Shown here one piece after another: positions 3,891 through 28,014 of a DNA stretch of 64,000 nt. The notes below the pieces were generated by a model. That model was not told the DNA's origin, did no database searches, and saw nothing but the letters and a program-made list of their open reading frames with translations. The first letter of the stretch is position 1. Each line of letters begins with the position of its first letter. The stretch comes from a virus. The position numbers were made by a program, and so were the translations under genes. The DNA is taken from the IMG/VR virus record IMGVR_UViG_3300006175_000009, positions 14,118 through 78,117 of that record; one strand, given 5' to 3'.

Positions 3891-3970
3891 CTCGTATGTC
3901 CTTTCGCGTGTCCTTGCGAGACACAGTTAAGCACATACGTAGGAGTCCAGTCAAGTGTGCTCTTTGGGCA

Positions 3971-4009
3971 AAAAGAAGGCCCTCCCAGGACGAGGATACC
4001 AGGAGGGCC
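3971..4009 (-). terminator. Intrinsic terminator ending the tRNA cluster
   Basis: GGCCCTCC...GGAGGGCC hairpin followed by TTCTTTTT on the minus strand. Confidence 0.7.
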
Positions 4010-4011
4010 GG

Positions 4012-4086
4012 TCGCTCAGGTTGGTCTCGAACCAACGCATCTCCCCGTTATGAGCGGGGTGCCTTAACCAGCTTGGCCACTGAGCG
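4012..4086 (-). tRNA. tRNA-Met(CAU), elongator or Ile2 type
   Basis: Acceptor CGCTCAG/CTGAGCG, anticodon arm CCCCG-CTCATAA-CGGGG, T-loop TTCGAGA. Confidence 0.9.
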
Positions 4087-4091
4087 AAGAG

Positions 4092-4170
4092 AGCGAACAG
4101 ACGGAGTCGAACCGTGATCCACCTGGGTTGCAGCCAGGCCCCAGTTGCCCACTGAGTTAGGACTATCCGC
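4092..4170 (-). tRNA. tRNA-Cys(GCA) with enlarged, atypical D-arm
   Basis: Acceptor GCGGATA/TGTTCGC with U73, anticodon arm CCTGG-CTGCAAC-CCAGG, T-loop TTCGACT. Confidence 0.75.
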
Positions 4171-4217
4171 AGAGCTGGGGAAGGCGGCTCGCCAGCCGTG
4201 CGTCCCTTACCCCAACG

Positions 4218-4296
4218 TGGAGAATCTGGGAGTCGAACCCAGCTCCTGGAGCTTCCCTCGTGGGGCTTTGACTCCAGTCGAAACCAACTATTCCCC
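4218..4296 (-). ncRNA. Mini-tmRNA: tRNA-like domain only (no mRNA-like domain)
   Basis: GGGGAAT-AGTTGGTTTCGA-CTGGAGT-(18 nt)-GCTCCAG-GAG-CTGGG-TTCGACT-CCCAG-ATTCTCC-A. G3-U70 alanine identity pair, stemless D-loop with the tmRNA-like GGTTTCGAC signature, no anticodon arm. Confidence 0.75.
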
Positions 4297-4355
4297 ATAC
4301 CAGACACCTCTCGGGAAATCTCAAGGAGGTGGGCTTTTACTGTCTGATTGCCGCG

Positions 4356-4428
4356 AGCCCCCGACAGGATTCGAACCTGCGTCACCGACTTACAAGGACG
4401 GTGCTAAACCAGCCTCAGCTACAGGGGC
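4356..4428 (-). tRNA. tRNA-Thr(UGU)
   Basis: Acceptor GCCCCTG/CGGGGGC, anticodon loop CT-TGT-AA, T-arm GCAGG-TTCGAAT-CCTGT. Confidence 0.85.
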
Positions 4429-4561
4429 AGCATGCCAGTTTGTTTTGTCAAGCGAAGCTGACACTCTCCGCCTTGGAAGACACGACCTGACCTACACCCG
4501 CGTTAGCGGTTAACAGGTAGTAATTGTAGCCGCAGATCATTACGACTTCATAGCGTGCCCG

Positions 4562-4629
4562 TGGACCCACGGAGAATCGAACTCCGCTGGAGTGCCTTGC
4601 AAAGGCTCCCTGTCACCTTGACCAGGCCC
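4562..4629 (-). tRNA. tRNA-Ala(UGC), short (68 nt) with truncated D-arm
   Basis: Acceptor GGGCCTG/TGGGTCC with G3-U70 and A73; anticodon loop TT-TGC-AA; D hairpin only GTCA-AGG-TGAC. Confidence 0.7.
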
Positions 4630-4701
4630 AAAAAGCATCATAACCGGAACAGCTTGTCCACCGGTAGTGCCTCCCCATGAATCGAGGTCTTTGATGCTAC
4701 G

Positions 4702-4784
4702 TACCGAAGGTGGGACTCGAACCCACAATCCCGAAGGCACTAGTTCCTAAGACTAGCGTGTATATCCAGTTCCACCACTCCGGC
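4702..4784 (-). tRNA. tRNA-Leu(UAG)
   Basis: Anticodon arm CTAGT-CTTAGGA-ACTAG, variable arm CC-TTCG-GG, T-arm GTGGG-TTCGAGT-CCCAC. Confidence 0.9.
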
Positions 4785-4800
4785 ATGTTCAGTTGTTGCG

Positions 4801-4895
4801 TGATCCGAGCAGGAATCGAACCTGCGTTACCCAGCCATCCTAAGCCTCAAGCCTAGGCATCAATCCGGGCGGCTTTCCATTTAGCCTATCAGACC
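4801..4895 (-). ncRNA. tRNA-like RNA with a ~23-nt hairpin insertion in the anticodon arm
   Basis: Acceptor GGTCTGA/TCGGATC, D-arm GGCT/AGCC and T-arm GCAGG-TTCGATT-CCTGC are intact; the anticodon stem CCCGG/CTGGG encloses 30 nt including CCTAGG-CTTGAGG-CTTAGG. Confidence 0.65.
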
Positions 4896-4971
4896 AAGGG
4901 AGACGCAGACGCGGGGGGAGGATCTACGTCTCCACTAGAACCAGGTGGGGGGGCCCTGTGTTCGTGGTACT

Positions 4972-5002
4972 AGCTTAGCACAGTCCATAGCCCCCTCGTC
5001 AA
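4972..5002 (-). promoter_or_regulatory. Promoter of the tRNA cluster
   Basis: TTGACG-N19-TAAGCT with a TGn extended -10. Confidence 0.45.
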
Positions 5003-5009
5003 GCCAGAA

Positions 5010-5957
5010 TCAGTGTCGAGTGAAGTTTTGTGCGAAGCCCAGCTCAGCGAGGTTGCTCAGCTCCTCCTGGTCCCCGTACTTCCGGCCTCGAAGGCAAGCC
5101 TCGGTGAAGGAGCACATGTACTTGCAGGTGTCTTCCTTCGGAGTGCGCTCGTGCCGGTTGTCGAGTCCGTAAGCCTTCAGGACGGTCGCTGTGGCCTCGC
5201 GTGCGATGGTGTCCAGCTCGGAGGGCATCCGGTCCATGTAAGTGCGGGAGAAGCGCTCTTCGGGGGACTGCATCTTTGGCCGGACGCCAGCTCGTTCGCC
5301 AGCTTCCTTTCGAACTTCCCAGCGCTCGATCTCGCCAGGAATGTCGCCCTTGTTCATCTTGGTCTTGACGGCATTATGAACAGCCATGAAAGACGGGTTG
5401 CCCAGTTCCCGTAGGGCCCACAGGTAAAGGCTGAACTGGTCGCTCAGGGCGTAGTCCTGCTCCTTCGGAAGAGTGGAACAGGTCTTATGGTCAAGTACGA
5501 GAAGGCGGTTCTTCTCATCGCGGACGATCAGGTCGATGGAGCCCTTGAGGATGATCTCCCGCTGTCCTTCGAAAAGGGTCGGGAGGGGGACTCGGAACTT
5601 GTGTTCGACGGCTCGGATGTTCCAGAGGGAATCTCCGTAGTAGCGCTCGTGATAGCCTTCGAACATCCAACGGACAATAGCCACAGCCTCCTCATCCGAG
5701 TCCGACTGTACTGGTACTGAGTCGAGTACATGATGAGCTGCCTTCACGCATTCCGCGAGAGGCTTTCCCTCCATTCGACCCAGATAGTACTGCTCGACAA
5801 CGGCATGGAAAAGGGTGCCCTTGCCCAGAGCTGTGTTCAGGTTGTTCTTCTTGGACCACCGCATCTTGTACTCAAGCATGTGCTTGTGAGGGCACGTGCG
5901 GTAGCTGTTGATCTCGGACCACGAGACAACTAGGGGCTCTGGGTTAGGGCTGGACAT
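5010..5957 (-). CDS. Cas4/RecB-like PD-(D/E)XK exonuclease
   Basis: SWSEINSYRTCP, GTLFH, GSIDLI...VLDHKT, QFSLY and C-terminal CKYMCSFTEAC (four-Cys Fe-S pattern); probably leaderless (TAAACT 6 nt before ATG). Confidence 0.85.
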   Translation of the reverse strand: MSSPNPEPLVVSWSEINSYRTCPHKHMLEYKMRWSKKNNLNTALGKGTLFHAVVEQYYLGRMEGKPLAECVKAAHHVLDSVPVQSDSDEEAVAIVRWMFEGYHERYYGDSLWNIRAVEHKFRVPLPTLFEGQREIILKGSIDLIVRDEKNRLLVLDHKTCSTLPKEQDYALSDQFSLYLWALRELGNPSFMAVHNAVKTKMNKGDIPGEIERWEVRKEAGERAGVRPKMQSPEERFSRTYMDRMPSELDTIAREATATVLKAYGLDNRHERTPKEDTCKYMCSFTEACLRGRKYGDQEELSNLAELGFAQNFTRH

Positions 5958-27087: not shown

Positions 27088-27684
27088 TTACTCGCCCTGT
27101 AGGCGGCTGATCAGAGTGGCCTTGGAGATGTTGCCCTTGGCGGGTACTCCACGCTCCTCTGCGAGGGCCTTGAGCTGCTGGAGAGTCATGTCCTCAAGGG
27201 GAAGATGCCCGAAGCCTCCAGCCTCTTCCGGAATGACAACGTCAGCTCGCAGGCCACATTCACCGCAGAACTTGGCGTCGTCCTTCATGGCCTCACCACA
27301 GCCCGTGCAAGTACGGGTGCTGGCCTTCTTCTGAGTGTGCTCAGGATTGGCGAACATCTGGGCTAGCTGAGCGATAGCCGCAGGAAGGTCACCGAGCGAA
27401 CCAAGCTTGGCCAGGGCTTCGGCGGTCTGGTTCTGCTGATCCTGACGGCCCTTCACTTCCTGGTCCTCGCGGTACGCCTTCTCGTCGGGGGTCTCCGGAA
27501 TTCCAGAGATCGTGCGAGACCAGTGGGGGTCCTCAATGAGGTGTGTCTCGCAGTTGTCGCACTCCAGAGTCCAGAGCTTGACAGGTGCTCCCTTGTCTAC
27601 GGGTCGGCTGTGAGTGTTTCCACAACCTCCGTGCGCAGGGGAAATGGACACGGCCGAAACGTCGGACCGCGCGTGCATTGCCAT
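27088..27684 (-). CDS. Zn-ribbon protein with a C-terminal HeH/Rho-N-like domain
   Basis: CTGCG...FCGECG; MTLQQLKALAEERGV...KATLISRL. Confidence 0.6.
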   Translation of the reverse strand: MAMHARSDVSAVSISPAHGGCGNTHSRPVDKGAPVKLWTLECDNCETHLIEDPHWSRTISGIPETPDEKAYREDQEVKGRQDQQNQTAEALAKLGSLGDLPAAIAQLAQMFANPEHTQKKASTRTCTGCGEAMKDDAKFCGECGLRADVVIPEEAGGFGHLPLEDMTLQQLKALAEERGVPAKGNISKATLISRLQGE

Positions 27685-27696
27685 GGAGGAACTTCC

Positions 27697-28014
27697 TTAG
27701 TTGGGAGCTGAAGTGGTAGCCGAGATGATTGCGGTACCACCGATTCCTGTTCCGTACAGAGTCTGAGCCACTGCACCGAGGGGAACGTTGATGGTGATGC
27801 TCTGACCAGCGTTGACGATGGCTCCATTTCCCGTCGCCAGGGAAGCCTGGTTGGGGCCGTAGGACACCGCAGCGCCAGACGTGTAGGCGTTCAGAATGAC
27901 CTGTACGGGGCCCGCTGGAACGTCAATGATCTTGGTGGCATTCACGCCAGCGGGGGTAAGCGAACTTGCCGCTCCACCACTGTTCAGGAATACCTGTTCT
28001 ACTCGGATCGTCAT
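27697..28014 (-). CDS. Small virion decoration-like protein (paralog C)
   Basis: Similar to the 29532 and 29822 proteins. Confidence 0.5.
   Translation of the reverse strand: MTIRVEQVFLNSGGAASSLTPAGVNATKIIDVPAGPVQVILNAYTSGAAVSYGPNQASLATGNGAIVNAGQSITINVPLGAVAQTLYGTGIGGTAIISATTSAPN

Follow-up and report, generated by a model that had tools for sequence, protein, structure and literature searches.

Known tmRNAs reduced to the tRNA-like domain

The closest described relatives of the gene reported here are tmRNAs that consist of a tRNA-like domain (TLD) only. 'Mycobacterium phage DS6A (TLD only)' is an entry in the list of Hudson, Lau and Williams (2014; PMC4131195), and the 2025 tmRNA database paper repeats this entry and adds two plastid forms of ~65 bp (PMC11915505). 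In these two sources, DS6A is the only phage named as a carrier of a TLD-only tmRNA. CDS-less tmRNAs have also been described from organelles, namely from jakobid and oomycete mitochondria and, as the ~65-bp forms, from plastids of Mallomonadaceae (PMC11915505, PMC4131195). Full-length phage tmRNAs are carried by Bxz1-type mycobacteriophages, Bacillus phage G and marine myophages (PMC4131195, PMC9004378).

In complex with SmpB, the TLD behaves like an entire tRNA; together with EF-Tu, it moves into the empty A site and takes the nascent chain (PMC3985003). Furthermore, in E. coli, a TLD molecule resembling that of DS6A is a strong inhibitor of tmRNA (Mao 2009, cited in PMC4131195 and PMC11915505). 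In the account of that work given in PMC4131195, the inhibition is strong whether or not the molecule is chargeable, 'perhaps acting by titrating SmpB'.

Here, we analysed a window of 64,000 nt, meaning the whole stretch from 14,118 to 78,117 of the IMG/VR record IMGVR_UViG_3300006175_000009, from a soil phage. The virus record is linear, 78 kb long and 77% complete according to CheckV. Its Prim-Pol/helicase shares ~26% identity with proteins from Streptomyces and Arthrobacter phages, and its proteins show only distant likeness to phages of Actinomycetota. Judged from protein similarity only, it would be a phage of actinobacterial type. A query of IMG/VR with its PD-(D/E)XK nuclease retrieved no close relatives of the phage. 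The same DNA was seen again in rhizosphere and soil metagenomes.

A 79-nt tmRNA gene in a phage tRNA cluster

The mini-tmRNA gene is part of a cluster of seven genes, which are arranged in the order Ile-like with an insert, Leu, Ala-like, Thr, mini-tmRNA, Cys-like and Met (Table 1). Upstream of the cluster, on the same strand, lie the PD-(D/E)XK nuclease gene and an endolysin gene, and downstream of it an HTH gene and the Prim-Pol gene. None of the genes read at the 3' end (Met, Thr, Leu and mini-tmRNA) encodes CCA.

Table 1. Features of the tRNA cluster and of the mini-tmRNA gene, in window coordinates. R1 is a covariance model built from eight equal-length family members.
Feature	Position	Strand	Evidence
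Intrinsic-terminator-like hairpin and U-run at the cluster end	3975..3996	-	terminator-like structure
tRNA cluster, seven genes including the mini-tmRNA	4010..4895	-	ARAGORN, Rfam, folds
Cys(GCA)-like gene	4092..4171	-	RF00005 18.7 bits, below cut-off
GC-rich hairpin, 46 nt, in the 3' trailer that separates the mini-tmRNA from the following tRNA-like gene	4172..4217	-	z -2.6
TLD-only mini-tmRNA gene, 79 nt, last base = discriminator A73	4218..4296	-	RF00023 50.5 bits, R1 89.2 bits, MFE fold, no RF00005 match
Acceptor stem 3' strand AUUCUCC, with U70; A73 = 4218	4219..4225	-	sequence; family conservation
GA of GGA motif, 1-nt linker G, T-arm CUGGG-UUCGACU-CCCAG	4226..4245	-	Rfam alignment, fold
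Helix 2, C20-G51 plus 6 bp, 18-nt loop	4246..4277	-	Rfam alignment, fold, family covariation, strain comparison
Stemless D-loop AGUUGGUUUC and GAC; tmRNA consensus GGxUUCGAC	4277..4289	-	Rfam alignment to tmRNA consensus
Acceptor stem 5' strand GGGGAAU, G3 of the G3-U70 pair	4290..4296	-	sequence; pairs 1-7 with 72-78 (Rfam alignment, fold)
Ala(UGC)-like gene	4563..4630	-	
'tRNA-Ile(GAU)' with insert	4800..4895	-	z -3.3 (long hairpin)

According to the preliminary description, a 79-nt element of a tRNA operon has the acceptor GGGGAAU/AUUCUCC-A including G3-U70, a D-loop that lacks a stem and ends in GGUUUCGAC, a helix 2 of 7 bp with a closing loop of 18 nt, and a canonical T-arm. All of these are present, read from 4296 to 4218 on the minus strand within the seven-gene cluster. 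The acceptor forms 7 bp, and the D-loop aligns to the tmRNA consensus. Helix 2 reads CUGGAGU/GCUCCAG with U-G as its last pair; beyond C20-G51, its strands are UGGAGU (5') and GCUCCA (3'), followed by GGA, whose first G (4246) also closes the helix. The loop of 18 nt, CAAAG-CCC-CACGA-GGG-AA, comprises the A-rich CAAAG and then the tip hairpin CCC-(C)ACGA-GGG. The unconstrained minimum-energy (MFE) fold is exactly this structure, including helix 2 and the T-arm. CCA is not encoded, the gene end reading ACGU, and a U stands directly before G1.

The preliminary description had also taken the element for a tmRNA reduced to its tRNA-like domain, to be matched by the tmRNA model at both ends only and to be missed by a tRNA scanner. 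The two ends of the element indeed align to the tmRNA model RF00023 (positions 1-374), with 16 nt in place of 308 internal model positions. The match scores 50.5 bits compared with a gathering score of 47, with E values of 1e-18 in a 1.2-kb scan and 1.7e-20 over the whole record. When the record was searched with the tRNA model RF00005 alone, there was no match at the mini-tmRNA with E ≤ 10, and ARAGORN did not call it. An Rfam scan of the whole window at the gathering threshold dropped the gene, presumably due to the speed filters.

The individual domains lead to the same assignment. The tRNA-like domain is complete, with a G3-U70 acceptor, A73, the stemless D-loop GGxUUCGAC, the GGAC junction and the T-arm. 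As had been stated, anticodon, tag ORF and pseudoknots are absent from the sequence and fold of the 79 nt. Helix 2 is closed by 18 nt only, which leaves no mRNA-like domain with resume codon, tag frame and stop, and no sequence remains to form PK1-PK4. From helix 2 to the 3' end with CCA added, no frame contains a stop codon, and therefore the RNA of the window has no tag frame. A tRNA cloverleaf with D-stem and anticodon arm is likewise missing, in line with the lack of an RF00005 match and of an ARAGORN call. The alternative of a degenerate tRNA thus fails, as RF00005 gives no match, and the gene at 4296-4218 is a tmRNA reduced to its tRNA-like domain.

Comparison with DS6A and other tmRNAs

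The DS6A gene was located at JN698994 28478-28560 (tmRNA Website tmID 11587). Like the window gene, it is phage-encoded and ~80 nt long, and it combines a G3-U70 and A73 acceptor, a stemless D-loop ending UCGAC, a short helix 2 and a T-arm with the absence of tag and pseudoknot. Both genes contain an A-rich stretch with a small tip hairpin (CCG-CACG-CGG in DS6A, CCC-CACGA-GGG in the window) and a G(G/C)A-C junction, and 38 nt separate UCGAC from the T-loop in both. Of 83 alignment columns, 42 are identical (~51%). RF00023 gives 43.2 bits for DS6A, which is below the cut-off, and 50.5 bits for the window gene, which is above it; with R1, the scores are 60.8 and 89.2 bits, respectively. The two genes differ in their setting: in DS6A, a temperate phage with an integrase, the gene has only protein genes around it, whereas the window copy belongs to a seven-gene tRNA cluster of a record without a tyrosine integrase. 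A length of ~65-95 nt, a complete TLD and a helix 2 closed by a short loop or hairpin, which mark the DS6A type, are all found here, and the structure is under selection, as seen from covariation and from three compensatory pairs against a related strain (below). The window gene is therefore of the same kind as the DS6A 'TLD only' tmRNA, and this kind itself is already known.

Standard SsrA (RF00023) shares the whole tRNA-like domain with the window gene, namely the alanine-identity acceptor, the D-loop and the T-arm, as well as the GAC/GGA tandem non-canonical junction of helix 2a. In comparison with it, the window gene lacks 308 model positions, which hold PK1-4, the resume codon, and the tag frame with its stop. 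The full-length one- and two-piece phage tmRNAs are similarly phage-borne, ssrA-derived and often adjoin tRNA genes; however, they keep the tag frame and are found by ARAGORN, neither of which applies to the window form. The likeness to the organellar CDS-less forms, as judged from their published descriptions, lies in a tRNA-like part that is kept alone and under selection while SmpB is encoded elsewhere. In contrast, the organellar form is the sole tmRNA of its organelle, whereas the window gene is an additional, viral copy in a host whose own tmRNA is intact. Therefore, competition with the host tmRNA would be expected, not its replacement.

A widespread family of mini-tmRNAs

A first search pattern consisted of the positions common to the window and DS6A genes (GGGG, UCGAC, GUUCGAxUC, CUCCA and a short middle). 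In IMG/VR, it returned at least 120 matches with at least 96 distinct sequences. Among the matches listed, lengths range from 67 to 92 nt (mode 79) and the GC content of the loci from 29 to 70%. In an anchor parse, the acceptor pairs at 7 of 7 positions in 117 of the 120 matches listed, though only four pairs had been fixed. Several features that had not been imposed are nearly universal among the matches listed, namely acceptor pairs 5-7, a helix 2 of 5-9 bp, and an A-rich stretch with a tip hairpin of 3-4 bp, typically UAAAG-CCG-CAYG-CGG-A. The GGA-C junction is near-invariant among them as well, though it lay outside the search pattern. In the searchable literature, we found no description of the breadth of this family or of the conserved tip motif.

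RF00023 at the gathering threshold found 17 of 20 tested members, whereas ARAGORN found no member correctly. Its 'tmRNA' calls over six of the 120 listed members have far-upstream 5' ends and implausible tags, and were read as artefacts. A blastn search of the mini-tmRNA against GenBank phages matched tRNA T-arms only. A tiny tag ORF was considered too, given the GCA UGA-like tips of some members, yet GCN-started frames that reach a stop are under-represented (18 of 97 family members, compared with 41 ± 5 in shuffles), and this candidate was rejected.

A pattern scan of GTDB identified true members in MAGs of Spirochaetaceae, Butyrivibrio, Aquaspirillum, Actinomycetes and Bacillota. In addition, a conserved mini-tmRNA of 80-81 nt with the tip AAACCAACAAACGGAC occurs in eleven Nostocales genomes (loci L146, L152, L160, L161, L166, L167, L179, L208, L213, L219 and L231). 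The family size is a lower bound, and TLD-only forms are common in phages. The preliminary description had regarded such forms as rare, with some mitochondria and a mycobacteriophage as examples. The examples are borne out (DS6A and the mitochondrial cases, PMC11915505), while the rarity is contradicted by at least 120 matches in each of two IMG/VR scans (the second described below) and by the members in bacterial MAGs and Nostocales genomes.

Other genome matches were discarded. About 55 matches in Eremiobacterota/Vulcanimicrobiota (e.g. L203 1400-2600) are not mini-tmRNAs, their 'acceptor' being part of a 10-bp stem and their fit to the pattern a chance match of motifs. These genomes contain tandem repeats of ~310 nt, each with a tRNA-like element of 72-76 nt and a T-arm; the 10-bp closing stem is GCUGGGGCGC/GCGCUCCAGC, and ARAGORN calls some of the elements tRNA-Ile or tRNA-Val. 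About 30 further matches proved to be ordinary tmRNA 3' ends with a chance GGGG...TCGAC upstream.

Covariation and comparison with a related strain

Model R1 gave one match in 97 of 98 sources. In the resulting alignment of 98 sequences, which was fitted to R1 and so leans towards structure, and with which the alignment-free anchor parse agrees, 94.8% of the cells are pairing compared with 66% in shuffles. Covariation scores 0.677, compared with 0.139 for shuffles; none of 500 shuffles reached the observed value, which drops to 0.10 or less once the partners are slid by 1-3 columns. Changes on both sides occur in 16 of 22 pairs among the 98 sequences, and helix 2 covaries.

A related strain is represented by a contig of an independent 2023 metagenome (X6 record 7), which covers the 1.2-kb stretch from end to end and differs by 34 substitutions. 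Inside the mini-tmRNA, there are exactly six differences, which make up three compensatory pairs of helix 2: 21-50 (U-A to A-U), 22-49 (G-C to A-U) and 24-47 (A-U to C-G). Acceptor, D-loop, tip and T-arm are identical, while the flanking spacers bear more substitutions and indels.

Neighbouring elements of the cluster

In the same strain, all seven substitutions and the one deletion in the 46-nt trailer hairpin preserve its pairing, with two compensatory pairs, three wobble-compatible changes and the loss of a bulged U. This hairpin is possibly a processing element or signal.

Three other genes of the cluster are unusual. The Ala(UGC)-like gene has a second alanine identity (G3-U70, A73), a shortened D-arm and an A-A mismatch in the anticodon stem, is called by neither ARAGORN nor RF00005, and differs at 2 of 70 positions in a ~92%-identical relative (X16 record 1). 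The Cys(GCA)-like gene has the discriminator U73 and an odd D-arm, and ARAGORN misses it. In 'tRNA-Ile(GAU)', an insert of ~27 nt in the anticodon loop stretches the anticodon arm into a long hairpin. The insert is too short for a group I intron, and the gene encodes either a tRNA-like RNA or an oddly inserted tRNA. A permissive Rfam scan of 3900-5100 (E ≤ 10) gave no match to the 6C RNA family, a member of which had been proposed at 4899-4967. In the RNA-seq library X16 and the doubtful X20, contigs cover parts of the 1.2-kb stretch, and 4218-4296 lies outside them.

Conservation of the alanine identity

While the first pattern imposed G3-U70 and A73, a second scan of IMG/VR left the acceptor free (UCGAC...GGACnnnGGUUCGAnUCC) and returned at least 120 matches. 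Among the matches listed with a well-paired acceptor, G3-U70 is found in 104 of 107 and A73 in 105 of 107, and pair 4-69, the neighbour of G3-U70, varies freely between G-C, C-G, A-U and U-A. CCA is encoded in 35 of 120 family genes among the matches listed. Because G3-U70 and A73 are near-invariant when not imposed, charging with alanine seems to matter. This conservation pattern is as expected for AlaRS charging under selection and argues for it.

The alanine identity bears on the idea of a pure sponge, an RNA that would titrate host SmpB (perhaps AlaRS or EF-Tu) without ever acting on the ribosome and would shut trans-translation down. The features on the SmpB side, GGxUUCGAC and GGA-C, are all retained, none of 50 other mini-tmRNA-bearing records (below) encodes a phage SmpB, and a similar TLD molecule inhibits tmRNA whether chargeable or not, according to the account of Mao 2009 in PMC4131195. 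However, precisely because an unchargeable TLD reportedly still inhibits tmRNA, a conserved alanine identity is not expected of an RNA that only holds SmpB. An uncharged sponge needs neither G3-U70 nor A73, yet both are kept in 97-98% of the matches listed without being imposed, next to a covarying pair, and among the matches listed 35 of 120 genes encode CCA. We consider the pure sponge rather unlikely. Since the alanine identity is conserved, a role on the ribosome would be favoured over pure titration.

Genomic setting and partner genes

Other tRNA genes lie nearby at only 25 of 120 loci among the matches listed. The commonest setting among these matches is a late structural operon, with the mini-tmRNA on the same strand as its genes: the terminase large subunit lies ~109 nt upstream in 18 loci, and in 22 loci the portal lies ~67 nt downstream, with prohead protease and capsid genes after it. 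The position between terminase and portal on the coding strand is seen in L010, L053, L064 and about 20 others, many of them small siphovirus-type contigs. It follows that co-transcription with the late structural mRNA would be expected at these loci.

No gene for SmpB, a CCA-adding enzyme or a tyrosine integrase was found in the 78-kb record, which is 77% complete; the integrase search covered the tyrosine type. As the record brings neither SmpB nor a CCA-adding enzyme, the mini-tmRNA should draw on the SmpB, the CCA addition and the AlaRS of the host. We also surveyed 50 other mini-tmRNA-bearing records, 19 of which are at least 90% complete. SmpB was found in none of the 50, a domain of the RF-1/ArfB type in one and a tyrosine integrase in six. 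The mini-tmRNA travels without a protein partner, mostly in phages without a tyrosine integrase. The single RF-1/ArfB case is a 115-kb phage record, in which a protein of 123 aa (L316, G013 27616-27801) carries a peptidyl-tRNA hydrolase domain of this type (60.9 bits).

These data also bear on whether the gene is a non-coding relic or punctuation mark. It would then be a fragment of attP or ssrA, or else a degenerate tRNA that the RNA operon retains only for cutting by RNase P/Z. The gene does sit among several odd tRNA-like genes, 46-58 nt from either neighbour, and ssrA 3' fragments are frequent in phage attP sites (PMC10865867). The preliminary description had allowed for such an ssrA-targeting attP relic. 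However, an ssrA 3' fragment would not hold both TLD halves, which are present here, pair with each other and covary across the 98 sequences, with three compensatory pairs against the related strain. The record has no tyrosine integrase and therefore none to make an attP relic, and only 6 of the 50 mini-tmRNA-bearing records have one. Furthermore, GAC/GGA, G3-U70 and A73 are conserved though a cutting site does not need them, and the tRNA model gives no match. This explanation is very improbable.

In another alternative, the RNA is strictly a tag-free rescuer, which would free ribosomes stalled by host defences that cleave mRNA or tRNA and leave phage proteins unmarked; release by host ArfB, ArfA-RF2 or Pth, or the addition of repeated alanines, would follow. 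The conserved alanine identity fits this proposal, as do the lack of a tag frame (18 of 97, against 41 ± 5 in shuffles) and the placement of the gene in many phages between terminase and portal, where the translation load is highest. CDS-less mitochondrial tmRNAs are, moreover, retained together with SmpB (PMC11915505). On the other hand, just one of 50 records has a release factor along with the gene, a link of the mini-tmRNA to defence or anti-defence genes was not found, and the A site left empty after translocation is again a substrate for the host tmRNA, so that tagging may not be avoided. Strict tag-free rescue thus appears distinctly unlikely.

Proposed mode of action

From the sequence alone, the preliminary description had suggested that the RNA may act as an SmpB sponge or may rescue ribosomes without tagging in the face of RNA-cleaving defences. 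We propose that the gene is a functional phage TLD-only tmRNA, which probably serves as an alanine-charged competitor of the host tmRNA and uncouples rescue from tagging. In this proposal, the RNA would be transcribed together with the tRNA cluster, excised by host RNase P and a 3' processing endonuclease, completed with CCA by the host enzyme, and charged with alanine by host AlaRS through G3-U70 and A73. Host SmpB would bind at the D-loop/T-loop elbow and the GAC/GGA junction. Since TLD.SmpB acts as a whole tRNA, a tag-less copy would rival the host tmRNA, with the Ala-RNA.SmpB.EF-Tu complex competing for SmpB and stalled ribosomes.

On the ribosome, the mini-tmRNA would accept the nascent chain (plus one Ala) and, having no resume codon, would offer no tag. 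After peptidyl transfer, the outcome may be release by ArfB, ArfA-RF2 or Pth, re-entry of another tmRNA, or a block. Rescue would thereby be uncoupled from ssrA tagging, and host trans-translation would be damped in infection. The net result in infected cells may be reduced ssrA tagging and possibly also reduced rescue.

Implications

The context adds to the single locus a large, structurally conserved phage family, which spans 29-70% GC and is often placed between terminase and portal. Its alanine identity, conserved without being imposed, separates a decoy from an RNA that acts on the ribosome, and does so in a testable way. The family would also define the smallest natural tmRNA. ARAGORN, the tRNA/tmRNA finder used here, misses it. 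In genome annotation, the mini-tmRNA and its three odd tRNA-like neighbours would be left out.

It is conceivable, though on balance doubtful, that the mini-tmRNA is a natural minimal substrate of trans-translation, that tag-free rescue replaces tagging during infection by phages of many bacterial phyla, and that the A-rich stretch and tip are a contact to SmpB or the 30S subunit. If so, an Ala-charged, SmpB-bound RNA would take the chain and pass the complex to release and recycling factors, or add alanines repeatedly, and UAAAg-CCG-CAYG-CGG-A would be a functional contact and not a mere helix cap.
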